A stretch of 64,000 nt of DNA from an uncultured Acidimicrobiales bacterium (GTDB lineage: Bacteria > Actinomycetota > Acidimicrobiia > Acidimicrobiales > SHLQ01). Shown piece after piece: positions 27,814 to 64,000 of this stretch. The position numbers and the translations under genes were made by a program. The DNA lies in contig CALHYX010000042.1 of the NCBI GenBank assembly GCA_938041035.1, positions 2,731 to 66,730 of the forward strand, given 5' to 3'. Every line of letters begins with the position of its first letter. Position 1 is the stretch's first letter. The notes under the pieces were generated by a model. That model saw only the letters and a list, made by a program, of their open reading frames with translations. It had not been told where the DNA came from and ran no database searches.

Positions 27814-29805
27814 TCAGTCTTCGTCGGCCGCGTCCGCCGCGCCGGCCCGAATCGCCTCGACGACATTGGCATCGGCGAGCGTGGTGGTATCGCCAAGGTC
27901 GCGGCCTTCAGCGACATCGCGCAGCAGACGGCGCATGATCTTTCCGCTGCGGGTCTTGGGCAGGTCGCTGACCAGGAACACCGCCTTCGGGCGGGCGATG
28001 GCCCCCAACTTTGTCGCCACGTGCTGGCGAACCTCCTCGCGCAGTTCGTCGCTCGGCTCGTGGGTACCGCGGAGAATCGTGTAGCCGATGATGGCCTGGC
28101 CGGTCGTTTCATCGGCCGCGCCGACCACGGCCGCCTCAGCCACCGCCGGATGGTCCACAAGCGCCGATTCGATCTCGGTGGTGGAGATTCGGTGACCCGA
28201 GATGTTCATCACATCGTCGACCCGCCCGAGCAGCCACAGGTACCCATCGCTGTCGAGTTTGGCCCCGTCGCCCGCGAAGTAGCGGCCGGCGAACCGGCTC
28301 CAGTACGTCTCGGCATACCGTTCGGGGTCGCCCCAGATACCGCGCAGCATCGATGGCCACGGCCGGGCGATGGTGAGGTAGCCGCCCCCTTCGGTGACCG
28401 GGTTGCCCTCGTCGTCGACCAGCTCGGCGAACACGCCGGGAATCGCGCTGCAGGCCGAGCCCGGCTTGGTCACCGTTACGCCGGGCAGCGGCGAGATCAT
28501 GTGGCCACCGGTTTCGGTCTGCCACCAGGTGTCGACGATCGGTCGGGTACTGCCACCGATGTGTTCGTGGTACCACATCCACGCTTCGGGGTTGATTGGT
28601 TCGCCCACCGTGCCGAGCACGCGCAGCGACGACAGGTCGTGGCGTTCGACCTCTTGGGCACCCCACCGCATGAACGTCCGGATCGCGGTCGGCGCCGTGT
28701 AGAACTGCGTGACCCCGTAACGCTCGATGATGTCCCAGAGCCGGTCCTTGGACCACGCGGCCCGATCGCCTTGGCGCTGCTCCTCGCGCGGCGTGTCGGG
28801 GGTGCCTTCGTACATCACCGACGTGCAGCCGTTGGCCAGTGGCCCGTAGACGATGTAGCTGTGGCCGGTGACCCAACCAATGTCGGCCGCGCACCAGTAC
28901 ACATCGGTCTCGGGCTGGAGGTCGAAGACGTACTTGTGGGTGAAGCACACCTGGGTGAGGTAACCACCCGTCGTGTGCATGATGCCCTTGGGCTTGGCCG
29001 TCGTGCCCGAGGTGTACAGCAGGTACAGCAGTTGCTCGCTGTCCATGGGTTCGGCCGGGCAGTCCGGGTCGGCACTCGCCATCAGATCGTGCCACCAGTG
29101 ATCCCGGCCCTCGACCATTTCGACGTCGGTGTCGCAACGGTTGACCACGACCACGTCGGTGACCGTGGTGCACAGCGGTAGCGCGGCGTCAACGTTCACC
29201 TTGAGCGCCGAAGGTTCGCCGCGCCGGTAGCCGGCGTCGGCGGTGATGATGACCTTGGCCTCGGCGTCGTTGCATCGATCCGAGATGGCGTCGGGGGAAA
29301 ACCCACCGAACACGACGGAGTGAGCCACCCCGATGCGGGTGCACGCCAGCATCGCCACCGGCAGTTCGAGAATCATCGGCATGTAGATGGCGACCCGGTC
29401 GCCCTTGGCCAACCCGAGCCCCAACAACACGTTGGCGAACTTCTGGACGTCGGCCAGCAGGTCGGCGTAGGAAACGGTGCGGGTGTCCCCCGGCTCCCCC
29501 TCCCAGTGGAAGGCGACCTTGTCGCCCTTGCCGGCTTCCACGTGGCGGTCGAGACAGTTGTACGACAGGTTGAGTTCGCCGCCGACGAACCACTTGGCGA
29601 AGGGCAGTTGCCAGTCGAGCACGGTGTCGAAGTCCTTCGACCAACTCACGAGCTCCCGGGCGTACCGGGCCCAAAACGCTTCGTAGTCAGCTTCAGCCTC
29701 GTCATAAAGCGAGCGATCGACGGCCAGAGCAGAGGCGACGAAATCCGACGGAGGCGGGAAGGTCCGTTGCTCGTTTTCGTAGACCTCGATGGCTTGATCG
29801 CTCAT
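27814..29805 (-). CDS. acs: Acetate--CoA ligase
   Basis: YTSGTTAKPKG, VGEPINP, DTWWQTETG and LPKTRSGKIMRR motifs; start ATG 29805. Confidence 0.96.
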   Translation of the reverse strand: MSDQAIEVYENEQRTFPPPSDFVASALAVDRSLYDEAEADYEAFWARYARELVSWSKDFDTVLDWQLPFAKWFVGGELNLSYNCLDRHVEAGKGDKVAFHWEGEPGDTRTVSYADLLADVQKFANVLLGLGLAKGDRVAIYMPMILELPVAMLACTRIGVAHSVVFGGFSPDAISDRCNDAEAKVIITADAGYRRGEPSALKVNVDAALPLCTTVTDVVVVNRCDTDVEMVEGRDHWWHDLMASADPDCPAEPMDSEQLLYLLYTSGTTAKPKGIMHTTGGYLTQVCFTHKYVFDLQPETDVYWCAADIGWVTGHSYIVYGPLANGCTSVMYEGTPDTPREEQRQGDRAAWSKDRLWDIIERYGVTQFYTAPTAIRTFMRWGAQEVERHDLSSLRVLGTVGEPINPEAWMWYHEHIGGSTRPIVDTWWQTETGGHMISPLPGVTVTKPGSACSAIPGVFAELVDDEGNPVTEGGGYLTIARPWPSMLRGIWGDPERYAETYWSRFAGRYFAGDGAKLDSDGYLWLLGRVDDVMNISGHRISTTEIESALVDHPAVAEAAVVGAADETTGQAIIGYTILRGTHEPSDELREEVRQHVATKLGAIARPKAVFLVSDLPKTRSGKIMRRLLRDVAEGRDLGDTTTLADANVVEAIRAGAADAADED

Positions 29806-30051
29806 GCGTTCCCTCAGTGTGCAGCACGTTGCTCGTGGAGATTTCCTAGCAAAAATTGTTGATGGTTGAACAGGCCGCACGCACGGTTGCACCGGCGCCA
29901 CCCACGGCGGTCGGCGGGGCATTCGGGAAAAAGGGGTAAAGAGTCGATAGGGTTCCCGGTGGGCTTCTCCGGAGTTGGTTTCGATCAACCCCGGAGTGTG
30001 GGAGACATCGGCTTGTTCAAGCCACCATCCGCTTAGGGAGAAAAACAAACA

Positions 30052-30411
30052 ATGATTTCCGAATTTAAAGAGTTCCTCGAGAAGTTCAACGTGATTCCGG
30101 TCGCCGTTGGTCTCGTCCTCGCCTTGGCCGTATTGCCATTGGTGGAGGCGGTCGTCAACTTCGTCATGTCGATCGTTGGCGCGCTCGCCGGCGGCGAGGT
30201 CAACTTTGATGATCTCACCTTCAGCCTGCGTGACGGCAGCGTGCCTTACGGCGCACTGATCACCGCGATCATCACCTTCTTGATGATTGCGTTCGTCGTG
30301 TTCATGATCGTGAAGGCCCTCAACAAGGCCGGCGCTCAGACCGCGCTCAACGCGACGCCGGACCAGGCGCTGCTGACCGAGATTCGCGACCTGCTCAAGT
30401 CGGGCCGCTAG
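30052..30411 (+). CDS. mscL: Large-conductance mechanosensitive channel
   Basis: EFKEF, NVIPVAVG, YGALITAIITF and LLTEIRDLL motifs. Confidence 0.9.
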   Translation: MISEFKEFLEKFNVIPVAVGLVLALAVLPLVEAVVNFVMSIVGALAGGEVNFDDLTFSLRDGSVPYGALITAIITFLMIAFVVFMIVKALNKAGAQTALNATPDQALLTEIRDLLKSGR

Positions 30412-30430
30412 TCTCCCGTTTCACTTCGAG

Positions 30431-30458
30431 AGGGCGGTCGCTTCGGCGGCCGCCCTTT
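30431..30458 (+). terminator. Intrinsic terminator after mscL
   Basis: AGGGCGGTCGC-TTCG-GCGGCCGCCCT followed by T residues. Confidence 0.75.
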
Positions 30459-30475
30459 CGGCGTTTTGGGCCGGT

Positions 30476-31129
30476 TCAGCCCTTGGGCAGGAAGCGGTGC
30501 TCTACTCCGGCGATCAGGGTCGCCAAACCGGACGTGAAGCGTTGCTCCGGCGTCCAGGCGAGACAGGCCGCCTGGAAGTCCGCCAGCTCCCGTTCGATAT
30601 CGCTGGTGGGTTCGGGCAACTTGAGTTCGAACTCGCGCATGATGCCGAGTTCCTGGCGGACGATGCCGTTCAGCCACGACGTGGCGGTCGTGAACGCAAT
30701 GGCGGCGTCTTTGGTCGACAATCCCGCCTTGGTGAAGATCCGGTAGGCCGCCAACAACAGGTCCGTACCCAGCTGCCCCTGCGCGTCGCGGGTGGTGATC
30801 AGCTCGATCAGGTTGGGGTGGCGGAGCGCATGGGTGCGCCAAGCCGAGCACAGCGCGTGGGCGTCGTCTTGCCAATCCGATTCGGCGTCGGGTTGATACG
30901 ACCCCAACACCTCGCCCACGAAGGACTCCACGATGGCGTCGAACAGATCTTCTTTGTTCTCGACGTGGTTGTAGAGCGACATCGCCTCGACATCGAGCTC
31001 GGCTCCGAGCTTGCGCATCGAGAGCTTGGCGAGCCCGTGGGTGTCCACAAAGGCGATCGCGGCCTCAGCGATGCGATGCCGACTCAGCGGCACTCGGGGC
31101 TTCTCGTTGACCACAGGCTTCCTGTACAC
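30476..31129 (-). CDS. TetR/AcrR family regulator (TetR_C-like)
   Basis: LSMRKLGAELDVEAMSLYNHVENKEDL HTH. Confidence 0.92.
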   Translation of the reverse strand: MYRKPVVNEKPRVPLSRHRIAEAAIAFVDTHGLAKLSMRKLGAELDVEAMSLYNHVENKEDLFDAIVESFVGEVLGSYQPDAESDWQDDAHALCSAWRTHALRHPNLIELITTRDAQGQLGTDLLLAAYRIFTKAGLSTKDAAIAFTTATSWLNGIVRQELGIMREFELKLPEPTSDIERELADFQAACLAWTPEQRFTSGLATLIAGVEHRFLPKG

Positions 31130-31227
31130 GCAGCGGATGAACGGAGTCAGCCTAGGACAAGTTGTGCCGGTGGGCTGGCCGACTAACCTACCGAAGCGAT
31201 TTTTGGACCGGACAATCCGGCGCCGGT

Positions 31228-31428
31228 TTAGACCGTGGCGCGCAGGTTGAGCAGCCGGTTCTCGACCGTGCCCGCCTTGACACCGATCGCCTCGGCGAGG
31301 GTGCGCAGGTCGTCGTGGCGAAGGTCGAGCGCCGTCCCTCGGCGGGTGCGATCCAGCAACCGGAGATAGGACTCGAGGACGGTGTCGACCGACCGGACGA
31401 TGGGAAGGCCGATGGATTCAGAACCCAT
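31228..31428 (-). CDS. Small protein resembling the BldD C-terminal domain
   Basis: 66 aa from ATG 31428: ...VLESYLRLLDRTRRGTALDLRHDDLRTLAEAIG...VENRL. Compare Streptomyces BldD CTD LSIRQDDLRTLA, recalled from memory. Confidence 0.55.
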   Translation of the reverse strand: MGSESIGLPIVRSVDTVLESYLRLLDRTRRGTALDLRHDDLRTLAEAIGVKAGTVENRLLNLRATV

Positions 31429-31611
31429 GGCAATACAGACCGAGTCGATAACGAGGGGGGCGCGTCGTTCAACCACGACTACCGGTGTACCGGTTCACCA
31501 ACCGTCGCGCAAGGGCCGAATGACCTTTGGGGTCACTGTTCACAAAGTGGAAACCAACCGCGGTGGTCGTTCACCGCCCAGCCCCGTCGGCGCGGCTTGT
31601 ACCCTGCGGGG

Positions 31612-32643
31612 GTGTCGACGCTGTCCTCGCTGCTCCGCGACCGAATCGACGAGCAGGGTCCACTCCCGTTCTCGACCTTTATGGATCTGGCCCTGTACCA
31701 CCCTGACCTGGGGTTTTATGCCACCTCTGGGCAGGCCGGGCGCCGGGGTGACTTCGTAACCAGCGTCGAGGTGGGGCCCCTGTTCGGCCAGGTGATGGCC
31801 GATTATCTCGACCGCCTGTGGACCGAACTCGGCCGACCCGCCCCGTTCACCATCGTCGACGCCGGCGCCGGGCCCGGCACCCTCGCTCGCACCATTCGCG
31901 CCGCCGGTCCGGCCTGTGCCGAGGCGCTCGACTACGTGGCGGTCGAGCGCAGCGCGCACCAGCGCAGCCAGCACCCCGATGGCATCCGCTCGCTGCCCGA
32001 TCTGCCGACCGCGCCGATCGTCGGGGCCATCGTCGCCAACGAGTTGCTCGACAACCTGGCGTTCGAGATCGTGCACTGGGATATCGAGGTCGGTTTCCGC
32101 CAGGTCGCGGTCATGGTGGACTCCGCGGGTGAGTTCGCCGAGGTCCTCACCCCGACGGAGTTCAACGATCCGGCCTTCGACCCGGGCGAGGCCCGCTCGG
32201 CGCGTCTCGTCTGGCAACCGGCGGCCACCCGGTGGTTGCAAACGGCGCTCGATCTGGTCGAACGCGGGCGGGTGCTCGTCCTCGACTACACCAACCGATC
32301 GGTGTACGCCGATCACCGGGCGGCCTCACCGATCCGCACGTACCGCGATCACCGCTCCGGTAGTGGTCCACTCGATCGACCCGGCGAACAGGACATCACC
32401 GCCGACGTGCAGGTCCGCGACCTCATCGCCGTCGAGCCGCCCGCGCTCATCGCGACCCAGGCGGACTGGCTTCGCGCCAACGGTATCGATGACCTGGTCG
32501 CCGAGGGTAAACGCGTCTGGGCCGACCGGGCGGGCATCGGCGACCTCGCCGCGCTGAAGGCGCGCAGCCGCATCGGTGAAGCCGAAGCGCTGCTGGACCC
32601 CGACGGACTGGGCGCCTTTACCGTGCTGGAGTGGCGCCGCTAA
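31612..32643 (+). CDS. SAM-dependent methyltransferase, MidA/NDUFAF7 (DUF185) family
   Basis: FMDLALYHPDLGFY, GDFVTSVE, DAGAGPGTLA, ANELLDNL and PGEQDITADV motifs; GTG start 6 nt after a TACCCT -10. Confidence 0.88.
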   Translation: MSTLSSLLRDRIDEQGPLPFSTFMDLALYHPDLGFYATSGQAGRRGDFVTSVEVGPLFGQVMADYLDRLWTELGRPAPFTIVDAGAGPGTLARTIRAAGPACAEALDYVAVERSAHQRSQHPDGIRSLPDLPTAPIVGAIVANELLDNLAFEIVHWDIEVGFRQVAVMVDSAGEFAEVLTPTEFNDPAFDPGEARSARLVWQPAATRWLQTALDLVERGRVLVLDYTNRSVYADHRAASPIRTYRDHRSGSGPLDRPGEQDITADVQVRDLIAVEPPALIATQADWLRANGIDDLVAEGKRVWADRAGIGDLAALKARSRIGEAEALLDPDGLGAFTVLEWRR

Positions 32644-32685
32644 ACCTGGTTGGTCAGCCCTGGGTTAACTCAGCGCCGGGTTGGT

Positions 32686-34239
32686 TCAACCCCCGGCGAG
32701 GAGGCTGACGTCGGTGAAGTCGCCCACCACGCTCGGCAAGATGCCGAACACCAGCGTGATGGCCACGGTGATGCCGAGGGCAGCGACCAGCGAAGGGGGC
32801 ACGTTGACCGGCGTCAGGTCGCCGTCAGGCGCCTCATCGGCCCACATCGTGCGGGCGACCGAGGCGTAGTAGTAGAGGGCGATCACCGAGTTCACGGCGA
32901 CGACGACGGCGAGGAGGTACCCCGACACCGAATCGTCCTGCACCAGCACCGAGAACACCCGGAACTTGGCGAACCAGCCCCCGATCGGCGGGATGCCGGC
33001 GAGCGAGAACAAGAACACGGTCATCACCGCGGTGAGCCCGGGTGCGTAGTGGAAGGCGCCGCGCATGTCGCTGATCTCGGCCGAGCGGGTCTTTCGGGCC
33101 AGGGCGATCAGCACACCGAATGCCCCGAGGTTCATCGCCGCGTAGATGGCGAGATAGTTCACCGTCGTGCTGAGGGCGGCGTCGGCGATGTCGCCGTTGC
33201 CGGCGACGGCGAGCGGAGCGATGATGAAACCGGTCTGGGCCACGCCGGAGTACGCCATCATGCGCACGAAGTTGGTCTGGCGAAGCGCCAGGAGGTTACC
33301 GATCGTCATGGAGGCGGCGGCGAGGAACCACATGAGCGGCTCATAGACGTCGCCGCGGCCCCAGAAGCCGACGTAGACCAGGGTGAGCAGGGCGACGAAG
33401 CCGGCGGTCTTGGACGCCACGGCCAGGAAGGCGGTGACCGGCGTCGGTGCGCCTTCATAGGTATCGGGGGCCCAGTTGTGGAACGGCACCGCCGACACCT
33501 TGAACGCGAACCCGACGGCGACGAACACGATGCCGAGGGTGGCGATACTGCTCGACTCCCGACCGCCGACCGCCTTGGAGATGTCGACGAGCAGGGTCGA
33601 GCCGGTGGTGCCGTAGAGCAGGGACATGCCGTACAGCATCACCGCGGAGGCAAAGACGCCCATCAGGTAGTACTTGAGGCCCGCCTCGTTGCTGAGCTTG
33701 TCGCGCTTGCGCCAGGCAGCCAGGAGGTAGGCGGGAATCGACAGAAGCTCCAGCGCCACAAAGATGCCGATGAGGTCCCGGGCCGAGGCCATGACCACCA
33801 TGCCGAGGATCGACGAGATCAGCAGCCCGTAGTACTCCGACTCCCAGTAGTCGCCCTCGGCGACGTAGTTGGTCGACAACAGCACCACGACGTAGCCGAC
33901 GAGCACGAAGAGGATCTTCATCACGATCGCGTACTCGTCGATGACGTAGTGCTCGAGCCCCACCGGGTCGGTGGCGCCGGGCTTCTTCTCGGCAAAGGCG
34001 TACAGCACATCGCCGTCGTTGACCCGGGTCCAGACCGCAACCAGCGGGATGATGACCCCGACGAGGCCGAGCCCGGCGATGGCCGACGTGATGGCCTTGG
34101 CCCGCTCGGCAAAGACGACATCGAGCAGCGTCAAGAGCGCGCCGAGGGACAACAACACGAGCTCGGGTGAGAGCGCGAACCAGTCGATTCTCGGTCGGGC
34201 GAACTCCGGCTGCGCCGCCTGGGCGAGTAGGTCGAGCAC
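32686..34239 (-). CDS. nuoN: NADH-quinone oxidoreductase subunit N (operon 1)
   Basis: EAGLKYY, FKVSAVPFHNWAPDTYEGAP and SLAGIPP motifs. Confidence 0.95.
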   Translation of the reverse strand: MLDLLAQAAQPEFARPRIDWFALSPELVLLSLGALLTLLDVVFAERAKAITSAIAGLGLVGVIIPLVAVWTRVNDGDVLYAFAEKKPGATDPVGLEHYVIDEYAIVMKILFVLVGYVVVLLSTNYVAEGDYWESEYYGLLISSILGMVVMASARDLIGIFVALELLSIPAYLLAAWRKRDKLSNEAGLKYYLMGVFASAVMLYGMSLLYGTTGSTLLVDISKAVGGRESSSIATLGIVFVAVGFAFKVSAVPFHNWAPDTYEGAPTPVTAFLAVASKTAGFVALLTLVYVGFWGRGDVYEPLMWFLAAASMTIGNLLALRQTNFVRMMAYSGVAQTGFIIAPLAVAGNGDIADAALSTTVNYLAIYAAMNLGAFGVLIALARKTRSAEISDMRGAFHYAPGLTAVMTVFLFSLAGIPPIGGWFAKFRVFSVLVQDDSVSGYLLAVVVAVNSVIALYYYASVARTMWADEAPDGDLTPVNVPPSLVAALGITVAITLVFGILPSVVGDFTDVSLLAGG

Positions 34240-34245
34240 CGTGGA

Positions 34246-35859
34246 TCAGCCCCCGGCCAGGTCGTCGTCGAGCTCGAAGACGCTCGAGCAGGTGACACCC
34301 TCGGGCAGGTCCTCGACGGACTCGGCCGACAGGCAGGGGTGCAGCGAGTTCTGCACCGCGTCATCGGTGGTTTCGAACAGCAGGTTCGGGTAGACGCCGA
34401 GCACGACGATCAGGGCGAGCAGTGGCGCCCAGGCCACGTACTCGAAGTTGTTGGCGTCGTGTACGTGCGGGTCGTCGGCGAACTCCTCGCTGGGGGTACC
34501 GAACGCGGTGCGCTGTAGCAGCCACAACAGGTAGCCGGCGGCGAGCACGGTGCCCAGGGCCGCGATGACCATGTACACCCGGAAGGTGACCTCGGAGATG
34601 CCGTTGGCCGGCTGGTAGGCCGCCAAGATGGCGGGGAACTCGCCCCAGAACCCGGCGAGACCCGGGAGCCCGAGCGACGCCATGACGCAGAAGCCGAGCA
34701 TCCAGCCCATGCGAGGCGCCTGGACCAAAAGGCCGCCGAGCCGCTTGATCTCGAGGGTGTGGTACCGCTCCTTCACCGAACCGGCGATGAAGAACAACAT
34801 GCCGGTGATGAGGCCGTGAGCGACCATGCCGAACACCGCCGCGTTGATGCCGAAGTCGGTGAGGGTGGCGATGCCGAGCATCACGAAACCCATGTGAGCC
34901 ACCGACGAGAAGGCGATCAGTCGCTTCATGTCGGTTTGAGCCAGACACCCCAGGGCGCCGTAGATGATGCCGATGACGGCCAGCAGGCCAATCCAGGGGG
35001 CCCACTCGACCGCCGCCTCGGGCAGGATGGGGATGGCGATGCGAACAAACCCGTACGTGCCGAGCTTGAGCAGCACGGCGGCCAGGATGACCGAACCGAC
35101 GGTCGGCGCCTGGGTGTGAGCATCGGGCAGCCAGGTGTGGAACGGAAACATCGGCACCTTGATACCGAAGCCGAGCAGCATGCCACCAAAGATCAACAGG
35201 CCGGTGCCGCGGGCTAGGCCGGCGCCGCCCCAGGCGGTGAGGGCCCGAAGGTCGAACGAGCGCAGTGCCTCACCGGCGCTGTCTTCGGCGAGGAAGAACA
35301 ACGACAGGAACGCAACCAGCATGAGCGCCGAACCAAACAGCGTGTACAGGAAGAACTTGAGCGAGGCGTACTTGCGATCCGGTCCGCCCCACACCGCGAT
35401 CATGAAGAACATCGGGAGCAGCACCACTTCGAAGAACACGAAGAACAGAATCAGGTCCTGGGCGACGAAGGTGCCGATCATGCCCGTTTCCAGGATCATG
35501 ATGAGGATGAGGAACGCCTTGGGGTTGTGGGGCTCGGGGAAGTGCTCCCACGAGTAGATGATGCACAGCGGAACGACGAGCATCGTGAGCAGGATCAGCG
35601 GCAGCGAGATGCCGTCGACCCCGACGATGAAGCGCGAGCCGATGATGTCGATCCACCGCTCGTCGACCACACCCTGGAGTTCGCCGGAGCGGTCGAAGTC
35701 GAACTCGAGCGCCATGTACACGCCAACCGCGGCGACGAACAGGCTCGTGCCGAGCGCCGTCAGCTTGTGGAAGCTCTCGGCATCGGCAGGCATCAGCATC
35801 ATCACCGCCACCGCGGCGAGAGGAACAAAGGTGATGGCTGGGAGAATCCAGTCAGGCAT
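34246..35859 (-). CDS. nuoM: NADH-quinone oxidoreductase subunit M (operon 1)
   Basis: KVPMFPFHTWLPDAHTQAPT, LKLGTYG and GLPGLAGFWGE motifs. Confidence 0.95.
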   Translation of the reverse strand: MPDWILPAITFVPLAAVAVMMLMPADAESFHKLTALGTSLFVAAVGVYMALEFDFDRSGELQGVVDERWIDIIGSRFIVGVDGISLPLILLTMLVVPLCIIYSWEHFPEPHNPKAFLILIMILETGMIGTFVAQDLILFFVFFEVVLLPMFFMIAVWGGPDRKYASLKFFLYTLFGSALMLVAFLSLFFLAEDSAGEALRSFDLRALTAWGGAGLARGTGLLIFGGMLLGFGIKVPMFPFHTWLPDAHTQAPTVGSVILAAVLLKLGTYGFVRIAIPILPEAAVEWAPWIGLLAVIGIIYGALGCLAQTDMKRLIAFSSVAHMGFVMLGIATLTDFGINAAVFGMVAHGLITGMLFFIAGSVKERYHTLEIKRLGGLLVQAPRMGWMLGFCVMASLGLPGLAGFWGEFPAILAAYQPANGISEVTFRVYMVIAALGTVLAAGYLLWLLQRTAFGTPSEEFADDPHVHDANNFEYVAWAPLLALIVVLGVYPNLLFETTDDAVQNSLHPCLSAESVEDLPEGVTCSSVFELDDDLAGG

Positions 35860-35901
35860 TGAAGTGACCTTGGGTTTGGTTCGGAAGCTTGCGGAGTTGC
35901 A

Positions 35902-38298
35902 TCAGATGACGATGATCAGGACGCCGGCCAGAACGGCGGCGGCGGCGAAGAGGTAGGCGGCGTACTGCTGGACCTTGCCGGTCTGGGACTTGCGGAGTTC
36001 GTCACCAAAGGCCGACGAAGCCTTGCCGGCACCGTCGACGGCACCATCGACGAGGGGTTGATCGATCTTGGTGTAGACGAACTGGCCCGCCGTTACCGCC
36101 GTGCGGCCGGCGGTGTCGATGACGTTGTCGATCAGATGCTTGTTCGACCAGTCGGCCATGTCGGCCACCGGGCCCTTGGTGCCGCCGGCGATGACGTCGG
36201 TGTAGAGATGATCGAGGTAGTACTTCTCGGCGAGCAACGTGTGACCGGCCTTGGCGATCGGCACCCGGCTGGTGAGGCCGTCGGGTAGCTCGGTCAGGCT
36301 GCGCCCCTCGACCTTGGAGCGCGCCTCGACCCGGTTGAAGTAGTAGAACACGGCGATGGCGGGGCCGAGCAGGCCGAGGATGCTGGCGACGATCGCGAGC
36401 GTGTAGCTCGGGGTGGCGTGGCCGATCGGCGGGAAAGCGGCCGACTGCGGTTCGATGAAGTGACCGAACCGCTCCTGCCAGCCGGCTTCCTCGCCGGTGA
36501 TGAAGCCGGGGGGAAGGTTCAAGAGGCCGGCGCCGACCGCGAACACCGACAAGATGACCAGCGGGATGGTGATGCGCTTGCCCGACTCGTGCGGGTGGCC
36601 GTGGCCTCGGAACTCGCCGAAGAAGGTGAGGTAGATCACCCGGGTCATGTAGGCGCCGGTCAGCATGGCGCCGACCAGACCCATCACCAGCATGAGGGTG
36701 TAGGCGCCGTTGGATCCGCCGGAACCACCGAACAGACCCCAGCCACCGGTGCCGACCAGGATCTCGTCCTTGCTCCAGAAGCCGGCAAAGGGGAAGACAC
36801 CGGCCAGCGAGATGGAGCAGATGACGAAGGTCTTGAAGGTGGTGGGCATGAACTTGCGCATGCCTCCCATGTCCTTCTTCATGTCGAAGCTGTGCACGGA
36901 GTGGGCCACCGAACCAGCGCCGAGGAACAGGCCCGCCTTGAAGAAGGCGTGGGTGAACAGGTGGAACAGGGCCGCGGTCCAGGCGCCGACGCCCAGCGCC
37001 ATGACCATGTAGCCGAGCTGGCTGACGGTGGAGTAGGCGAGCACCTTCTTGATGTCGTCCTGCACGAAGGCGAGCATCCCGCCGAACACAACGGTGATCG
37101 CCCCGATCAGTGCCAGAGCGTTGATGCTCGACCCCGAGATGGCGAACCCCTCGAAGAACACGGGATAGAGCCGGGCGATCATGTAGACGCCGGCGACGAC
37201 CATGGTGGCGGCGTGAATGAGCGCCGAGACCGGGGTGGGGCCGGCCATGGCGTCGGGCAGCCAGGTATGGAGAATGAACTGGCCCGACTTCGACATGACG
37301 GCGGCGGTGAGACACAGCGCGGCGATCAACAGCGTGTTGCGGGGAATCTCACCGGCGACGGCCATCTCGTTGATGGTCATGATGTCGAAGGTTCGCCCGG
37401 CGGCGAAGTACAGGATGATCATGCCGATCAGCAGGCCCATGTCGCCGACCCGGTTGGTCAGGAAGGCCTTGAGGGCGGCGTCGGAGTTCGGCTTTTCCTC
37501 CCACCAGTGCCCGATCAGCGCGAACGAACACACGCCCACGAGCTCCCATGCGGTGATGAACTGCACGGTGCTGCGGCTCATGATCAGGAACAGCATCGAG
37601 GCGGTGAACAACGACAGGAACGCAAAGAAGTGGGTGTAGCGGCGGTCCCCGTGGACGTAGTCGGTGCTGTAGATGTGCACCAGCAGCGAGATCAGGGTGA
37701 CGACGAACAGCATCAGGATGGTCGGGCCGTCGACCAGGATGCCGACCGTGAATTCGTGGCCACCGCTCTGGAACCAGGTGAAGCCCTTCAGGATCGCGAC
37801 GGAGGCGTGCACCTCGCTGTGACCATCCTCACCGGCTTCGACGAGGGCCGCGGCGCCGGCGCCGCCTACCGAGGCGTCGACGAGGGGAGCCCCGTCGCCG
37901 TCGAAGTACGCGGGTGCGCCCTCTTCATCGGAGTGCTCGGCTTCATCGGAGTGCTCGGCGTCGTCAGAGTGTTCGCCGTCGCCACCGTGCTCGAGCACGC
38001 TGGTGGCGTCCGCCTCGGGGAAGTTGTCGCGATGATCGATCCAGGCGGCCCCGGCCCACAGCGACAGCAGGAAGCATGTGCCGACCGCGGCGATACCGAT
38101 GGTCGACGACGCCGGGGTCTCGGAATCGCCGATCTTGATCGAGCCGAGCGACTTCCCGAAAAACAGGATCACGGCAAACGAGAGCGCCATGATCAGCGGA
38201 ATCACCCAGACGTACTCCAGGATGATGTTGAAGCCACCACCGACGTCGGAGGTAAAGCTGACCTCGGGGACCTCGCTGGCGGCGAGCAGGAACTTCAT
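35902..38298 (-). CDS. nuoL: NADH-quinone oxidoreductase subunit L (operon 1)
   Basis: WLPDAMAGPTPVSALIHAATMV, HAFFKA and GFWSKD motifs. Confidence 0.96.
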   Translation of the reverse strand: MKFLLAASEVPEVSFTSDVGGGFNIILEYVWVIPLIMALSFAVILFFGKSLGSIKIGDSETPASSTIGIAAVGTCFLLSLWAGAAWIDHRDNFPEADATSVLEHGGDGEHSDDAEHSDEAEHSDEEGAPAYFDGDGAPLVDASVGGAGAAALVEAGEDGHSEVHASVAILKGFTWFQSGGHEFTVGILVDGPTILMLFVVTLISLLVHIYSTDYVHGDRRYTHFFAFLSLFTASMLFLIMSRSTVQFITAWELVGVCSFALIGHWWEEKPNSDAALKAFLTNRVGDMGLLIGMIILYFAAGRTFDIMTINEMAVAGEIPRNTLLIAALCLTAAVMSKSGQFILHTWLPDAMAGPTPVSALIHAATMVVAGVYMIARLYPVFFEGFAISGSSINALALIGAITVVFGGMLAFVQDDIKKVLAYSTVSQLGYMVMALGVGAWTAALFHLFTHAFFKAGLFLGAGSVAHSVHSFDMKKDMGGMRKFMPTTFKTFVICSISLAGVFPFAGFWSKDEILVGTGGWGLFGGSGGSNGAYTLMLVMGLVGAMLTGAYMTRVIYLTFFGEFRGHGHPHESGKRITIPLVILSVFAVGAGLLNLPPGFITGEEAGWQERFGHFIEPQSAAFPPIGHATPSYTLAIVASILGLLGPAIAVFYYFNRVEARSKVEGRSLTELPDGLTSRVPIAKAGHTLLAEKYYLDHLYTDVIAGGTKGPVADMADWSNKHLIDNVIDTAGRTAVTAGQFVYTKIDQPLVDGAVDGAGKASSAFGDELRKSQTGKVQQYAAYLFAAAAVLAGVLIIVI

Positions 38299-38306
38299 CG
38301 AGCCGA

Positions 38307-38615
38307 TCAGCCCTTCATCGCATCGACTTCAGAGAAGTCGATCGTCTTGGAGTTGCGATACAGCAGCAGCACGAGGGCCAGGCCTACGCCGACCTCCGCC
38401 GCCGCGACCGCTATTACGAACAGGGCGAAGACTTCGCCACCGAGGGTGCCGCGAAACGCGGAGAAGGCGACGAGATTGATGTTGACGGAGTTGAGGATCA
38501 GTTCGATCGACATGAGGACCATCACGCCGTTGCGCCGGGCCAGAACGCCGTACACGCCGATGCTGAACAGCACGGCGGCGAGGATCAAAAACTGGTTGAG
38601 ATAGACCTCGGTCAT
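38307..38615 (-). CDS. nuoK: NADH-quinone oxidoreductase subunit K (operon 1)
   Basis: RRN, SIELILN and VAAAEVGVGLA motifs. Confidence 0.95.
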   Translation of the reverse strand: MTEVYLNQFLILAAVLFSIGVYGVLARRNGVMVLMSIELILNSVNINLVAFSAFRGTLGGEVFALFVIAVAAAEVGVGLALVLLLYRNSKTIDFSEVDAMKG

Positions 38616-38617
38616 CG

Positions 38618-39142
38618 CTAGTCCTTCCGCGCGATCACGATGGCGCCGATGAGGGCAGCGAGCAGGAGCACCGACACCGCTTCGAACGGGATGATGTACT
38701 CCTTGAAGATGGCGTCGCCGATCTGCCCGGTGGTGCTGGCCTCGGTCCGGTCGATGGTCTGATCGTCGAAGACGTCGACGACGGCGTAGGTCATGACGCC
38801 GAACAACAACACGCCGGTGAGCGCCGCCATACCGCGCCGCTCGGTGGCGACGCTCTCGTCGTCGCCGAGTTCGGCTCGGGTCAACATGATGCCGAACAGG
38901 AACAACACGATGACCGCGCCGATGTAGACCAGCACCTGGGTGACGCCGACGAATTCGGCGCCGAGCAGGATGAACTGCGCGGCCACCCCGGCGAGCACCA
39001 GCACGAGGTACAGCGCGGCGTGCACCACGTTCTTGGTGGTCACGACGCGGAACGCGCTGAACACCATCACGGCGGCGATGAGGAAGAAGGCGATCTGGCG
39101 GGGGACTTCGGGGTCATAGGCCAGGATCACGGCGTCGGTCAC
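38618..39142 (-). CDS. nuoJ: NADH-quinone oxidoreductase subunit J (operon 1)
   Basis: NVVHAAL, QVLVYIGAV and PFEAVSVLLL motifs; GTG start 39142. Confidence 0.93.
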   Translation of the reverse strand: MTDAVILAYDPEVPRQIAFFLIAAVMVFSAFRVVTTKNVVHAALYLVLVLAGVAAQFILLGAEFVGVTQVLVYIGAVIVLFLFGIMLTRAELGDDESVATERRGMAALTGVLLFGVMTYAVVDVFDDQTIDRTEASTTGQIGDAIFKEYIIPFEAVSVLLLAALIGAIVIARKD

Positions 39143-39167
39143 AGCGACACCTCGAATGGTCGGTGCA

Positions 39168-39704
39168 TCACTTCGGCACCTTCTTGACCTTGGCCTCGGA
39201 GCCGCTCTCGTAGGACTCGAATTCCGGAACCGTGTGCATCCACTGCCCGAGGCGGCTCTTGTCGTGCAACAGGTCGGCGATCTTGGGCTCGCTGAACTCG
39301 TACTCGGGGCTCCAGAACAGGGCTTCGAACGGGCACACTTCGACACAGATGCCGCAGTACATGCACAGCGCATAGTCGATATCGAACCGGTCGAGCATGT
39401 TCTTCTGACGGGGCTTACCGCCGGCGCGGCGCGGCGGGGCCTTTTCCTTGTGGCCCTCGATGTAGATACACCAGTCCGGGCACTCGCGGGCGCACAACAT
39501 GCACGCCGTGCAGTTCTCCTCGTGCAGGGCGATGACGCCGCGAGCGCGGGGGCTCGGCGTTTCCTTCACGTGCGGGTACTGCACGGTGTGGGCGCCGCGC
39601 GACGGTGCCGGGATGGGCTTGAGCGGCCCGTCGGGAAACACCGTCTTCATGAAGGTCTTGGCGGTGACGCCAAGCCCTTTGATCATGCCGGGTACGAGTG
39701 CCAT
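39168..39704 (-). CDS. nuoI: NADH-quinone oxidoreductase subunit I (operon 1)
   Basis: [12 protein letters not shown] and [12 protein letters not shown], two [4Fe-4S] motifs. Confidence 0.95.
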
Positions 39705-40736
39705 TTAGAAGACCACCTTCAGTACGCCGGTGACGACGATGTTCACGAGCGAGAGAGGGATGAGGTACTTCCACGCCAGCTCCTGGAGCTGATCCTCACG
39801 GAAGCGGGGGTAGGTAAAGCGGAACCAGAAGATGAGGAACGTCACCAGCATCATCTTGGCGAAGAGCACGATCGGCCCAAGTACGTTGAACAGGTTCGAG
39901 TCGGCGTCGAGGCCGGGGATGTACCAGCCGCCGAGGAACAAGGTGGCGGCCAGGGCGGCGAACACGCCGGCGGTGGCGAACTCGCCGATGAAGAACAACA
40001 GGAATCGCAGACCGGAGTACTCGGTCATGTAGCCGGTGACGAGCTCGGACTCGGCGACCGGCATGTCGAACGGCGGCTGGGTGAGCTCGGCCTGGATGGC
40101 GATGAGGAAGATCGAGAAGCCGAGGAACTGGGTGAGGATGTACGGGTTGCCGATTCCGCCGAACCCGAAGATCTCGCCGTTGGCCTGGGCGAGCACGATC
40201 TCCTGCAGGTTCAGCGTGCCGGCCTGCACGACCACGCCCATGACCGCGAGCACCATGGGAAGTTCGTAGGCGATGAGCTGACCGGCGGCGCGCAGGCCGC
40301 CGAGCAGCGAGTACTTGTTGGCCGAGGCCCAACCGGCCATGAGGATGCCGATAACCGACACCGACGACACGGCGAGGGCGAAGTAGATACCGGTGTCGAT
40401 GTCGATGAACCAGGCGTCGGGCCCAAAGGGCAACACGATGACGAGCAGGAACGTCGAGACCAGCACCACGAACGGGGCGGCGAAGAAGACGTAGCGGTCG
40501 GCGCGAGCCGGGACGATGTCCTCTTTCTGGAGGAACTTGCCCACCTCGGCCAGGAGCTGGAGCGAACCGAACGGACCGGCCTCGTTGGGGCCGAGACGGC
40601 TCTGCATGAAGCTCATCATTTTGAACAGGTACACGTAGACGAGCGTGCCGGCGGGTAACAAGATGGCGACGAGCGCGCCGACCAGCTTGATGCCGGTCGA
40701 CTGCCAGTAGGGAAGCTCCGCGAGGACGAGACTCAT
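39705..40736 (-). CDS. nuoH: NADH-quinone oxidoreductase subunit H (operon 1)
   Basis: QSRLGPN, PFDMPVAESELVTGYMTEYSG and PRFRED motifs; ATGA overlap with nuoD. Confidence 0.95.
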   Translation of the reverse strand: MSLVLAELPYWQSTGIKLVGALVAILLPAGTLVYVYLFKMMSFMQSRLGPNEAGPFGSLQLLAEVGKFLQKEDIVPARADRYVFFAAPFVVLVSTFLLVIVLPFGPDAWFIDIDTGIYFALAVSSVSVIGILMAGWASANKYSLLGGLRAAGQLIAYELPMVLAVMGVVVQAGTLNLQEIVLAQANGEIFGFGGIGNPYILTQFLGFSIFLIAIQAELTQPPFDMPVAESELVTGYMTEYSGLRFLLFFIGEFATAGVFAALAATLFLGGWYIPGLDADSNLFNVLGPIVLFAKMMLVTFLIFWFRFTYPRFREDQLQELAWKYLIPLSLVNIVVTGVLKVVF

Positions 40737-41908
40737 CGATCGATGTCTCCGAGGATGAAGTACAGGCTGGCCAAGATGGTGATGATGTCGGGCACGTAAA
40801 CGCCCTTCAGCAGCCAGGGCGTGATGCAGACGTTGTTGAACGATGCCGAACGAATTTTCACCCGGTACGGCACGAGGTCGCCCTGCGACACGATGTAGTA
40901 CCCCATCACGCCCAGCGGGTTCTCGCACTCGACGTAGGCCTCGCCGGCCGGCACCTTGATGATGCGCGGCACCTTGGCCATCACGGGACCCGACGGCATC
41001 GAGTCCAGCAGCTGGTCAACGATCTTGGTGCCCTCCCGGGTCTCCTGGAGGCGCACCCAGAACCGGGCGAAGCTGTCGCCGTCGGGGTGGGTCCAGACCT
41101 TCCAGTCGATCTCGTCGTAGGCGAAGCCTTCGGGCTGATCGCGGCGCAGGTCCCAGTCGACCCCGCTGCCGCGAATGTTCACGCCCGACAGCCCGTAGGA
41201 CAGGCCGACGTCGGCGGGGATGATGCCGATACCACGGGTGCGCAGCTCGAAAATCTCGTTGCCCATCACCAGCTGTTCGAGCTCGTCACAGAAGCTGCGG
41301 ATGCGGGCCATGGCGTCGTGGGTGCCGGCGATCCAGCCGGCGGGAATATCGTCTTTGAGCCCACCGATGCGGTCGAAGTTCGGGTGGAACCGACCGCCGG
41401 TGGCCGCTTCGATCTGGTTGAGCACGAACTCGCGGTCGCGGAAGGCGTAGAACGCCGGCGTGGTGGCGCCGAGCTGAAGGGCCATATCGCCGAGGCCGAG
41501 GGCCACGTTGGCCATACGACTCATCTCGAACAGGATCGTGCGAATCCACTTGGCTCGAGGTGGCGCTTCGACCTCCATGAGCTTTTCGGCCGCCAGGATG
41601 AACGGCACCTCGTTGGCGAAGCTACCGACCCAGTCGATGCGGTTGATCAGCGTGGTGACCTGTGGGTACGTGCGCACCTCGGTGAGCTTTTCGTAGCCCC
41701 GGTGCATGTAGCCCATGACCGGCTCGGCGAGCACGACCTGTTCGCCGTCGAGTTTGGCGAGCAGACGGAGCGTGCCGTGGGTGGCCGGGTGCTGGGGGCC
41801 CATGTTGAGGGTCATGCCCTCGGTTTCGATCTCGAGGTTGACCCGCGAATCGGCGGCCTGGGCCGCGATGTAGGCGAGTTGCTGGCGTTCGCTGAGCGTG
41901 TCGGCCAT
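40733..41908 (-). CDS. nuoD: NADH-quinone oxidoreductase subunit D (operon 1)
   Basis: GPQHPATHGTLR, GYMHRGYEK and GDIDR motifs. Confidence 0.96.
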   Translation of the reverse strand: MADTLSERQQLAYIAAQAADSRVNLEIETEGMTLNMGPQHPATHGTLRLLAKLDGEQVVLAEPVMGYMHRGYEKLTEVRTYPQVTTLINRIDWVGSFANEVPFILAAEKLMEVEAPPRAKWIRTILFEMSRMANVALGLGDMALQLGATTPAFYAFRDREFVLNQIEAATGGRFHPNFDRIGGLKDDIPAGWIAGTHDAMARIRSFCDELEQLVMGNEIFELRTRGIGIIPADVGLSYGLSGVNIRGSGVDWDLRRDQPEGFAYDEIDWKVWTHPDGDSFARFWVRLQETREGTKIVDQLLDSMPSGPVMAKVPRIIKVPAGEAYVECENPLGVMGYYIVSQGDLVPYRVKIRSASFNNVCITPWLLKGVYVPDIITILASLYFILGDIDR

Positions 41909-42609
41909 CAGGCGTCCGCCTTTGCTGCGTCGTCGGCTTCATCGGCCTCGTCACCGTCGCCGGGCATACCCTCGACGTCGACGATCCCGGGCCAGGGCTT
42001 CACCTGGCGAGCGAGCAAGGGGAAGTCCTTGCGCAGCGGGTTTCCTTCGAAACCGGTCGGCAGGTAGATGTTGCGCAGGTCGGGGTGACCCACGAAGTGA
42101 ATGCCGAACATCTCGCGCACCTCGCGCTCGTGCCAGTTGGCGCCCGGGTAGGTGTCGATCCAAGTGTCGGCCGCGAGGTCGTCGTCGGGGATGTCGGTCT
42201 TGACCGTGACCGCCCAACCGTCGGCGATGTTGTTCACGCGGGCAAAGAGTTGGAAGCGGGTGTCGGCGCCGGCCAGCCCGGAGCCCTGCTCGAGCGGATC
42301 GCTTTCATCAGCGCCGTGCACGATCGTGTCGACCTGGGAATCCATGTCGCGTCCGAACGGCGATGGCATCCAGTCGATGGCCGACAAGAAGCTGAAGTAC
42401 CGGCAGTGCATTCCCGAGTGCAGCCACTCCGCGGTGCGAGCCCAGGCGTCGCGCGCCACCCGCACCCAGATGTCGTCACCGGGTTGAATGTGGGAGCCGA
42501 TCACGGCGTCGCCCAGCTCTTCGCCAAACTGCGCGAGGAGTTCTTCGCGCTGTTCGTCGGTCTCGACGACCTCGACCTCTTCGCCCTCGGCGGGCGTCTC
42601 GTCAGCCAT
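41908..42609 (-). CDS. nuoC: NADH-quinone oxidoreductase subunit C (operon 1)
   Basis: [18 protein letters not shown] and GNPLRKDFP motifs. Confidence 0.94.
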
Positions 42610-43112
42610 CAGCCGTCAACCACGATTGGTTCGGTGCGCCAGCGTTCGGCCGGGTCTTCGTGCCGAATGCGTTCCTGGAGCAACACGATGCCCTCGAGCA
42701 GCGCTTCGGGCCGTGGCGGGCAGCCGGGTACGTACACATCGACGGGGATGATCTGGTCGACACCTTTGGTCACCGAGTAGCTGTCCCAGTACGGGCCGCC
42801 GCAGTTGGCGCACGAACCCATGGAGATCACGTACTTCGGGTCGGGCATCTGTTCGTAGAGCCGCTTGACCGCCGGCGCCATCTTGTCGGTGACGGTCCCC
42901 GAGATCACCACCATGTCGGCCTGGCGCGGACTGGCGGGAAACGGAATCACGCCGAGGCGCATCACGTCGTAGCGCGGCGAGGCAAAGGCGGCGCCCATCT
43001 CGATCGCGCAGCAGGCGAGACCCCATTGGTACACCCACAGCGAATACTTGCGGCTGATGTTCAGCAGCGTGGTGATCGGTTTGGGGAGCTTTCCGCTCTC
43101 GACGAGACCCAT
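42609..43112 (-). CDS. nuoB: NADH-quinone oxidoreductase subunit B (operon 1)
   Basis: [15 protein letters not shown] and [10 protein letters not shown] motifs. Confidence 0.96.
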
Positions 43113-43119
43113 CAGTTCC

Positions 43120-43485
43120 TCAGATCCACTTCAGGACACCCTTGCGCCAGGCGTAGGCAAGCCCGAGCACGAGGATGAAGATGAAGATGGCCATTTCGAT
43201 CAGTCCGAAGACGCCGTAGGCCTCGAGTCGGACTGCCCACGGGAAGATGAAGACGGCTTCGACGTCGAACAGCACGAAGAGCAGGGCAAAGACGTAGTAC
43301 CGAATGTTGCTCTGGCTCCACATGTCGCCGGTGGCGTCGACCCCGGACTCGTACGTGGTGAGCTTCTCTTCGGTGGGTTTGGAGGGCCGCAGCAGCGAGC
43401 CGGCGCCCAGCAAAACGCCGACGAGCAGCACGCCGAGGCCGCCGAAAATGGCGACCGTGAGGTAGCTGCGCAGGAGTTCAGACAC
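43120..43485 (-). CDS. nuoA: NADH-quinone oxidoreductase subunit A (operon 1)
   Basis: [16 protein letters not shown] and WRKGVLKW motifs. Confidence 0.95.
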
Positions 43486-48613: not shown

Positions 48614-48716
48614 TGATCGCGTCGCCGTTGGTCGCTATCCACCGGTACCAGCGTGACAGGCCACAGCCCGCGCCCACAATCCCGCCGTTTCTCCGCCTGG
48701 CGTTCGTTTCCCTGTT

Positions 48717-61069: not shown

Positions 61070-61689
61070 GAGCCTTCTCCTTCGGGGGTCGGTGCGGGAA
61101 GCCAAACGGGGGCTTCGTTCGCCTGTTCGGGGGGCACGATTCCGGCACTGCGGCCTGTCGGAATGTGCTGGCGAACCTTGCCGAGCGTGCCGTGGGGCGG
61201 AATGTCGGTGCGCGCACCGGAGCGAAGGTCGTCGATGACCTTCTCGGCCTCGTCGAGTTCGATGCGGTGGAAGTATCGGTAGTTGACCTGCATGCACGGG
61301 GCCTCGGTGCACGCCGCCAGGCACTCGTAGTCCTCGAGGGTGAACATCTTGTCCTCGGTGGTCCCACCGTGTTTGATGCCGAGCTTGTCCTCGAGCCGGT
61401 GCAGCAGTTCCTCACCGCCGAGCAGCATGCAGGAGATGTTGGTGCACACGTTCACCAGGTACGTGCCGACCTCGTGGCGCTTGAACATCTCGTAGAAGCT
61501 GCACGTTCCGACGACTTCGGCGGGGGTCACGTCGCACAGTTCGGCGATGTGGGCCATGGCGTCGTCCGCGACGTAGCCGTCTTGTTCCTGCGCGAGGTGC
61601 AGCAGCGGAATCATCGCCGACTTCTTGACCGGATAGCGCGAGAGGATCTCGTTGGCGGTGGCCAGGTTTTCGGCGTTCAAGCGAGCCAT
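61066..61689 (-). CDS. nuoE: NADH-quinone oxidoreductase subunit E
   Basis: VCTNISC and ECLAAC [2Fe-2S] motifs. Confidence 0.95.
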   Translation of the reverse strand: MARLNAENLATANEILSRYPVKKSAMIPLLHLAQEQDGYVADDAMAHIAELCDVTPAEVVGTCSFYEMFKRHEVGTYLVNVCTNISCMLLGGEELLHRLEDKLGIKHGGTTEDKMFTLEDYECLAACTEAPCMQVNYRYFHRIELDEAEKVIDDLRSGARTDIPPHGTLGKVRQHIPTGRSAGIVPPEQANEAPVWLPAPTPEGEGS

Positions 61690-63589: not shown

Positions 63590-64000
63590 TCAGGCGCTTC
63601 CGAGGCTCACGGGGCTGACCTGGCCGTCGCGCTGTTCGATGACGAGTTCGGCGCCGCCGCCGGTCTCGTGGCGACGTCGGGTGATCTCGCCGTCCTGGAT
63701 CTTGTCGTGGAGGGTCAAGATGGCGTGCATCAGGGTCTCGGGTCCGGGCGGGCAACCCGGCGCGTAGACATCGACGGGCACGATCTGGTCGACACCCTGC
63801 ACGATGGCGTAGTTGTTGAACATGCCGCCCGACGAGGCGCACACGCCCATGGAGATGACCCACTTGGGTTCCATCATCTGGTCATAGATCTGACGGAGCA
63901 CCGGGGCCATCTTCTGTGAGACCCGGCCGGCGACGATCATCAGGTCGGCCTGACGAGGCGACGCCCGGAAGACCTCCATGCCGTATCGGGCGAGGTCGTA
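63590..64000 (-). CDS. nuoB: NADH-quinone oxidoreductase subunit B (operon 2), 3' part; start beyond the window
   Basis: [19 protein letters not shown] and [10 protein letters not shown] motifs; frame open to the window end. Confidence 0.94.

Follow-up and report, generated by a model that had tools for sequence, protein, structure and literature searches.

A gene of the MidA/NDUFAF7 family lies beside an operon for a complex I paralog devoid of NuoE, NuoF and NuoG in a stretch of 64,000 nucleotides (in the following called the window) from an uncultured Acidimicrobiales bacterium (assembly GCA_938041035.1, contig CALHYX010000042.1, positions 2,731 to 66,730), and its product, a putative S-adenosylmethionine (SAM)-dependent methyltransferase, probably methylates Arg70 of NuoD1, the NuoD subunit of that complex, during assembly of the latter. 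A second, canonical operon of the 14-subunit type stands in the same window. The enzyme-substrate pair is established in mitochondria, where NDUFAF7 is reported to methylate Arg85 of NDUFS2 (PMC3829151), and the modification is established in Paracoccus, whose Nqo4 is described with dimethyl-Arg, the conserved Arg of E. coli NuoCD being given as not methylated (PMC3750175). Among 14 control genomes, PF02636, the Pfam family of MidA, was found in Caulobacter and not in E. coli or Thermus. The function of prokaryotic MidA has so far been inferred in silico only, as stated in PMC12455994.

The methyltransferase gene and the NuoEFG-less operon

The longest open reading frame (ORF) of midA extends from 31162 to 32643 on the plus strand; homology of the relatives begins at the GTG at 31612, which gives a protein of 343 residues. 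This protein matches PF02636 (Methyltransf_28) with an E value of 1.9e-30 and 106.6 bits (cut-off 23.3) over profile positions 3-233 of 249, and its likeness to solved structures of the family, judged by sequence alone, is greatest for 1zkd, a DUF185 protein of Rhodopseudomonas (7.5e-19), followed by 4f3n (2.1e-18) and Dictyostelium MidA, 5ztz (5.3e-14, N-terminal 106 residues only). All 15 invariant columns of a family alignment of 67 sequences are present, the conserved residues T50/S51 (DFxTSxE), G85/G87/G89, E144/D147, D225/Y226 and G258/D261/T263 are retained, and in the glycine-rich motif DAGAGPGTL, presumably the SAM-binding site, G85, A86 and G87 are nearly invariant and G89 is invariant in that alignment. 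On these matches the protein is assigned to the MidA/NDUFAF7 family.

The neighbouring operon (operon 1, 32686-43485, minus strand) comprises, by Pfam matches, genes for NuoA, B, C, D, H, I, J, K, L, M and N in that order, and no NuoE, F or G was found between D and H in the Pfam search of ORFs; nuoABCDHIJKLMN thus form one cluster, as expected of an 11-subunit complex I without these three subunits. The midA stop ends at 32643 and the nuoN ORF begins, its stop included, at 32686, so that the two convergent genes are 42 bp apart. In the whole assembled genome (94.6% complete, 113 contigs) there are one PF02636 locus and two NuoD genes, all of them inside the window. An earlier note on this DNA had described the convergent pair and had named operon 1 as the sole complex I paralog whose NuoD keeps the methylatable Arg; all its coordinates for the pair hold, and the second statement stands for an assembly of that completeness.

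Linkage of midA to the operon across the class

In a sample of 41 genomes of the order from 17 families, PF02636 was present in 38. In 27 of 29 MidA loci of relatives, MidA is immediately preceded, on its own strand, by an operon-1-type nuoN of 57-73% identity; of the remaining two, one lies at a contig start and the other (genome G002) has a glycine-cleavage T gene (gcvT) upstream. A class sample of 151 genomes, each at least 85% complete and assigned to Acidimicrobiia from the names of the records, contains both MidA and the NuoD1 type in 137 cases, neither in 8, the NuoD1 type only in 5 and MidA only in one (G179). The eight genomes without both genes fall into families f19 (5 genomes), f20, f25 and f48, and two genomes of the order sample (G031, 92% complete, and G038, 95%), from two further families, are also without both; canonical NuoB only was found in two of the genomes lacking the pair (G085 and G134). 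None of these 10 genomes, which lack the NuoD1 type, has MidA.

A real loss of MidA in the five class genomes with the NuoD1 type only was considered and rejected, as in each of them the operon is truncated by the end of its contig. In G075, G147 and G175 that end falls within nuoN, nuoJ and MidA respectively (a MidA fragment is visible in the last); for G129 and G070 the coordinates place the match of nuoD less than 750 bases from the start of the contig, on the strand running off it. In the first sample the contig of G012 ends inside nuoD.

Both genes are found on one contig in 113 genomes of the class, and in 109 of these MidA is situated downstream on the operon strand, at no more than 10.5 kb from nuoD in 97 genomes and at 10.5-25 kb in 12. 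In 80 further named loci (Acidimicrobiales, Ilumatobacteraceae, Microthrixaceae, Iamiaceae and similar) nuoN stands upstream on the same strand in 77, two are without a nuo gene in the locus, one is without upstream flank, and none is convergent. Adjacency in a single genome could be fortuitous by itself; because it recurs across the class, the adjacency of MidA and the operon is judged not to be due to chance. It can be proposed that in the class ancestor midA was the last cistron of a nuoABCDHIJKLMN-midA operon. One genome (G102) has an N-terminal PF02636 fragment (profile 1-111; C12:77714-78091) about 8 kb downstream of nuoD1 and a full-length copy on another contig (C44:9369-10139).

Pairing with stand-alone nuoD outside the class

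In a sample of 201 genomes of the phylum the distribution of PF02636 is patchy (67 of 201, a figure which includes seven genomes flagged as unpublished; these were left out of all other counts and alignments). According to a hand tally, 22 of the 46 published MidA-positive genomes outside the class have MidA less than 10 kb from a NuoD1-type gene; they belong to eight families (f60, f66, f71, f78, f82, f88, f90 and f97), and in most of them the two genes converge, with a few hundred bases between them. In one further genome the genes are 29 kb apart, and in the other 23, among them all those of family f53, they are on different contigs or the NuoD1 type was not found.

Of twenty regions surrounding MidA, each no longer than 20 kb, 14 contained a NuoD1-type gene (12 of them also with a tblastn match of MidA), and other nuo genes were not detected in any of the 20, so that nuoD stands alone there. 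The His-Arg pair is kept in 14 of 14 stand-alone NuoD proteins, as HRG in 10 and as HRA in 4. The rest of the EFG-less cluster, with NuoB1-type (67-72% identity) and NuoN1-type genes, was found elsewhere in four of five genomes checked. Genome G239 possesses two NuoD1-type genes (C69:3442-4563 and C42:9310-10410), one in the cluster and one beside MidA, and two members of its family, G225 and G253, have three NuoD matches each.

In a quick maximum-likelihood tree of NuoD, the in-operon NuoD1, the stand-alone NuoD proteins and the NuoD1-type sequences of families f53, f55, f58 and f59 form one clade with a Shimodaira-Hasegawa-like approximate likelihood ratio test (SH-aLRT) value of 99, and canonical NuoD2 forms a separate clade, again with SH-aLRT 99. 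MidA adjoins the same NuoD clade in two unrelated gene arrangements, and therefore NuoD is its likely partner; the pairing argues for NuoD itself, not the whole operon, as the protein which MidA would serve.

The Arg/Thr split and the surroundings of cluster N2

NuoD1 reads ...VMGYMHRGYEKL, with Arg as residue 70, and NuoD2, the product of the canonical operon, reads ...VIGYLHTGMEKT, with Thr as residue 92 (codon 62727-62729, minus strand). The motif GYMHRGYEK occurs in all 30 NuoD1 orthologues of the order and GYLHTGME(K/W) in 20 of 20 canonical NuoD2 orthologues; since the latter have Thr throughout, canonical NuoD cannot be a target at that position. The split between GYMHRGYEK and GYLHTGMEK, as well as the codons concerned, had been read correctly by the earlier note.

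NuoB1 keeps the CC...C...C cysteines, including PGCPP. These four cysteines are taken, after the Thermus structure, to be the ligands of the iron-sulfur cluster N2. At the position of an inter-subunit switch NuoB1 has Thr73 (SGTVT), and NuoB2 has Arg (AGRVS, codon 63923-63925), which corresponds to Thermus Nqo6 Arg83 in a gap-free alignment (query 2-104 to 2fug_6 59-161). The switch residue is Thr in 67 of 67 matches from NuoB1-type loci, a few genomes being counted twice, and Arg in 6 of 6 canonical ones. The same two solutions are described for known enzymes, where Arg in NDUFS2 goes with Thr in NDUFS7 (Thr122 in Yarrowia) and where Thermus has Thr in Nqo4 and Arg83 of Nqo6 in the same space (PMC8042128). 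By this alignment the canonical complex has an N2-proximal Arg too, supplied by NuoB, a subunit which is not known as a substrate of the MidA/NDUFAF7 family: NuoB2 carries the Thermus-type Arg and NuoB1 carries Thr.

A further difference concerns the quinone site. The position of the quinone-ligating Tyr (Tyr87 in Thermus Nqo4, Tyr144 in Yarrowia) is occupied by Trp in 61 of 61 NuoD1-type sequences, in-operon and stand-alone, all of which keep His44 (Thermus His38); NuoD2 keeps the Tyr (RMDY). The combination of Tyr and His that marks a canonical quinone-reducing NuoD is consequently not present in NuoD1. As judged from these alignments, the EFG-less complex has a rebuilt site for the quinone head group, and its reaction with quinone may depart from the usual one. 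With Trp at the quinone-Tyr position and the changed NuoB switch, the two complexes differ beyond methylation, and the natural within-genome test of N2-proximal Arg methylation which the earlier note had seen in them is not a clean one.

Local inversion of midA in this genome

In relatives of the same family the gene order is mscL(+), midA(-), nuoN(-); in the window it is mscL(+), TetR-family gene(-), midA(+), nuoN(-). The acetyl-CoA synthetase gene, which follows MidA on the same strand in four of six named relatives examined (L250, L255, L232 and L261), is still on the operon strand. From this and from the mscL/midA/nuoN order of the relatives it follows that midA alone has apparently been turned round, with insertion of the TetR gene, in a small local inversion of a segment of about 1.5 kb. 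Farther 3' of MidA, a HAD/PNKP-like phosphatase gene is present in L250 and L232 and a gene for an M48 (HtpX-like) peptidase in L250 and L255. Whereas the earlier note treated the convergent layout as the arrangement, within the class it is a local exception (1 of 113), and the inversion is the sole feature peculiar to this window.

No TetR match was found in the 29 MidA loci of relatives. The TetR-family gene is separated from midA by a spacer of 482 bp, and midA may now be controlled by this regulator; outside the operon it would need a promoter of its own. A scan of 30300-32800 restricted to the sigma-70 consensus gave no promoter-like site, and the single terminator-like site in the same interval was not above shuffles, with none in the 42-bp gap between midA and nuoN. 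Inverted repeats flanking the inverted segment were not found, only short and imperfect pairs. Misassembly was weighed as a cause of the convergent layout and rejected: both junctions are bridged without differences by records 2 and 4 of X1 and records 11 and 12 of X2, these being contigs of two marine-metagenome runs from one study (X1 is possibly the source of the assembly), so that contigs of two samples span both junctions.

Proposed function and its alternatives

It is proposed that MidA serves the NuoEFG-less 11-subunit paralog by binding free NuoD1 and, with SAM as methyl donor, methylating Arg70 of its HRG loop, probably by symmetric dimethylation if the analogy with NDUFAF7 holds. Arg70 would be the residue packing against the N2 cluster held by NuoB1, and its methylation would take place before NuoD1 docks onto NuoB1 or while it does so, in the manner described for NDUFAF7 and NDUFS2 (PMC3829151). 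The canonical complex would be independent of this step, its NuoD having Thr and the equivalent Arg coming from NuoB. It may well be, although this broader proposal must be regarded as more tentative, that MidA forms an ancient enzyme-substrate module of Actinomycetota with a particular clade of NuoD, in which the Arg is retained and the quinone Tyr has given way to Trp, and whose NuoB partner has Thr. The module would be kept together within the operon or as a stand-alone pair, and Arg methylation would be a paralog-specific maturation.

The predicted MidA-NuoD1 complex gives weak support to binding: its interaction prediction score from aligned errors (ipSAE) is 0.32 versus 0.00 for the best control, at least 90% of the contacts are the same between runs and the predicted local distance difference test (pLDDT) value of the partner is at least 86. 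In calibration, 116 of 157 solved complexes and 2 of 215 mismatches attained the ipSAE mark; at scores of 0.60 or below the number falls to 18 of the 157 solved complexes and still includes both mismatches. The MidA-NuoD1 prediction, made with its own alignments and with SAM riding along, departs from that calibration.

A number of observations weigh against methylation of Arg70 by MidA, which is predicted from family membership and gene context. The weakness of the complex prediction is one of them. Since midA is outside the operon here, co-expression is not assured. Linkage is broken in family f27 (in 3 of the 113 genomes, which are all those of f27 with both genes on one contig, MidA is more than 690 kb from nuoD), in G002, in the named loci L269 and L277 and in all f53 genomes examined. 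G179, the class genome with MidA only, has a NuoB1-type gene that is frameshifted and split between two frames.

The correlation with the Arg itself has limits as well. An H-R NuoD is present in nearly all MidA-positive genomes. Of nine such genomes without a clear NuoD1-type match, eight have one, and in the ninth, G262 (98% complete), only canonical HTG NuoD and canonical NuoB were found beside MidA, which again speaks against the proposed pairing. So do the H-R NuoD proteins in 11 of 11 MidA-negative genomes checked outside the class, and the NuoD1-clade genes of families f58 (MidA in 0 of 13) and f59 (0 of 9). H-R NuoD is common without MidA there, and therefore the Arg does not require the enzyme, nor does it by itself imply methylation; E. 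coli, with a conserved Arg described as unmethylated (PMC3750175) and no PF02636 match, is a case of the same kind. The co-occurrence and adjacency of DUF185 (PF02636) and HRG-type NuoD, which the earlier note offered as a check, hold within the class; beyond it, MidA nearly always goes with H-R NuoD, and the reverse is not true. The note's view of MidA as a dedicated maturation factor of the 11-subunit complex is supported in part, namely as to the link with the EFG-less complex and its NuoD, which is strong and evident from the operon-terminal position, the joint loss and the relocated nuoD.

The genomic context ties MidA to NuoD and to the complex and not to one residue, and Arg70 is invariant also in lineages without MidA, so that its conservation is independent of the enzyme; MidA might therefore be a binding or assembly chaperone for NuoD, or methylate another residue or subunit, with Arg70 not the target. 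This is considered unlikely, for all 67 sequences retain the SAM-binding glycines along with the other family-invariant residues, which points to catalysis, the sole demonstrated substrate of the family in the reports cited is this very Arg (PMC3829151, PMC3750175), and the paralog without the Arg is the one without a link to MidA.

Considerably less probable is a target outside complex I, be it DNA, RNA, a different protein or a small molecule such as a quinone, in which case adjacency to nuoN would reflect no more than common regulation or history. A report of 2025 describes DNA methylation by Wolbachia MidA in E. coli, called preliminary by its authors (PMC12455994), and this counts against methylation of Arg70; the EFG-less complex was not detected in G262 in spite of its MidA, families f27 and f53 keep MidA unlinked, and midA is convergent and not co-transcribed in the window. 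Such a target, however, leaves aside two conserved arrangements with the same NuoD clade, operon-terminal in one and beside a stand-alone nuoD in eight other families in the other, and the lack of MidA in each of the 10 genomes without that NuoD. A reading of the inverted midA as a gene in decay or already silent, with the EFG-less complex of this genome working without MidA, can hardly be credited: no second convergent example exists in the 113 class genomes or the 80 named loci, and the sigma-70 consensus scan left the gene without a promoter-like site, but the ORF is intact with every family-invariant column kept, and the identical arrangement occurs in contigs of two samples.

Implications

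If the broader proposal of an ancient module is true, Arg methylation would allow one cell to build two complex-I-type machines with different solutions for N2, methyl-Arg would mark an EFG-less enzyme with an acceptor chemistry unlike canonical quinone reduction, and protein arginine methylation of complex I would be no proteobacterial or mitochondrial speciality. A methyltransferase gene that belongs to the operon of one NuoD clade, disappears together with this NuoD and accompanies it to new places provides strong genomic evidence for a methylase-substrate pair of the mitochondrial type in Actinomycetota. Cultivable Acidimicrobiia and Streptomyces-like genomes with a two-gene nuoD-midA module are tractable systems, in which the role of methyl-Arg for N2 or for assembly could be addressed by removal of the enzyme with the main NADH dehydrogenase untouched. 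The Trp at the quinone-Tyr position raises the question of the acceptor of the EFG-less complex.

Gene content of the window

The window has a G+C content of about 65%, and both nuo operons are on the minus strand. Operon 2 runs from 48717 to the window end and is of the long canonical 14-subunit type; its layout was taken from ORF sizes and tblastn queries, close inspection being confined to its NuoD and NuoB. The two operons are about 5 kb apart on the same strand (43486-48716), and a 14-subunit operon is likewise reported near the 11-subunit one in Ca. Actinomarina (bioRxiv 10.1101/2021.02.01.429150). The features are collected in Table 1.

In operon 1 the ORFs of nuoD and nuoH adjoin or overlap each other. 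For nuoL, nuoJ and nuoH the longest ORF starts well 5' of the homology, and in the case of nuoJ and nuoH it runs into the preceding gene; matches of relatives to nuoL1 begin at query residue 171-179. The true starts of nuoL1 and nuoH1 are probably downstream of the listed coordinates, and that of nuoJ1 probably lies near residue 90-106. Between the operons there is an ORF of 1265 residues (44345-48142, plus strand), three stretches of which match the neocarzinostatin family PF00960 (E value 1.9e-22). Neither heliorhodopsin nor any other Pfam family was found at an E value of 0.05 or below in the ORFs beside nuoA (43531-44809) and ahead of operon 2 (48036-48613).

Table 1. Features of the window, with positions counted from its first nucleotide
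Feature	Position	Strand	Basis
Acetyl-CoA synthetase, longest ORF, on operon strand	27814..30048	-	PF00501, PF13193, PF16177
mscL	30052..30411	+	PF01741; convergent with midA in same-family relatives
TetR-family regulator, divergent from midA	30476..31129	-	PF02909 and PF00440
MidA/NDUFAF7-family SAM-dependent methyltransferase, 343 aa, GTG start	31612..32643	+	PF02636; PDB sequence matches; family alignment
42-bp gap between convergent midA and nuoN stops	32644..32685	.	ORF ends; bridged with 0 differences by X1 record 4 and X2 record 12
nuoN (operon 1)	32686..34239	-	PF00361, E 1.6e-63; relatives' orthologues adjoining MidA 57-73% identical
nuoM (operon 1)	34246..35859	-	PF00361 and PF01059
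nuoL (operon 1), longest ORF	35902..38298	-	PF00662 at residues 175-225, PF00361
nuoK (operon 1)	38307..38615	-	PF00420
nuoJ (operon 1), longest ORF, overlapping nuoI	38618..39373	-	PF00499 at residues 106-247
nuoI (operon 1)	39168..39704	-	4Fe-4S dicluster families
nuoH (operon 1), longest ORF, overlapping nuoD	39705..40928	-	PF00146, E 3.4e-100, at residues 81-400
nuoD1, 391 aa, motif GYMHRGYEK	40733..41908	-	PF00346, E 1.2e-75; translation
Trp93 codon of NuoD1, aligned to T. thermophilus Nqo4 Tyr87	41630..41632	-	Gap-free alignment, query 25-127 to chain 19-121
Arg70 codon of NuoD1, position of NDUFS2 dimethyl-Arg	41699..41701	-	Arg in 61/61 NuoD1-type sequences
nuoC (operon 1)	41908..42609	-	PF00329
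nuoB1 (operon 1), CC...C...C kept, Thr73 at inter-subunit switch	42609..43112	-	PF01058; translation; comparison with NuoB2
nuoA (operon 1)	43120..43485	-	PF00507
nuoD2 (canonical 14-subunit operon), 437 aa, motif GYLHTGMEK	61689..63002	-	HTG in 20/20 orthologues of the order
nuoB2 (canonical), C-terminal 136 aa, cut at window end	63590..64000	-	Gap-free alignment to 2fug_6

Comparison with known systems

The adjacency of such an operon and NDUFAF7 is already in print. The 2021 preprint on Ca. Actinomarina gives the gene order heliorhodopsin, 11-subunit nuo operon, NDUFAF7, htpX, pspE (bioRxiv 10.1101/2021.02.01.429150), and literature searches returned no other prior report of a link between the operon and MidA. 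Ca. Actinomarina is of the same class and, as described there, shares with the window the operon type and the order nuoA-D, H-N, NDUFAF7, with a 14-subunit operon close by; in the window, by contrast, midA is inverted and heliorhodopsin was not found beside nuoA. In its account of the locus that preprint presents NDUFAF7 as heliorhodopsin context and does not take up the contrast of Arg and Thr, the switch in NuoB, the joint loss or the pairs with a stand-alone nuoD.

Human NDUFAF7 and Dictyostelium MidA share PF02636 with the window protein, and their partner is likewise a NuoD/NDUFS2 homologue with Arg in the H-R-G-x-E-K loop; NuoB1 moreover has Thr where Yarrowia NDUFS7 has Thr122. Unlike these systems, the window gene stands next to the operon that encodes its presumed substrate and was ancestrally part of it, and its proposed partner is a NuoEFG-less paralog with Trp at the quinone-Tyr position instead of the NADH-oxidising complex. 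The canonical operon of the window has the same pair as Thermus thermophilus complex I, as the latter is described in PMC8042128, namely HTG in NuoD and AGR in NuoB, but the complex which matches Thermus is the one without a link to MidA. Paracoccus denitrificans Nqo4, in the published description, is a bacterial NuoD homologue with a methylated Arg (PMC3750175), and the best PDB match of the window protein, 1zkd, is an alphaproteobacterial DUF185 protein. The modified enzyme of Paracoccus is nevertheless the canonical 14-subunit complex, whereas in the window the canonical complex has Thr and it is the second complex that has Arg.

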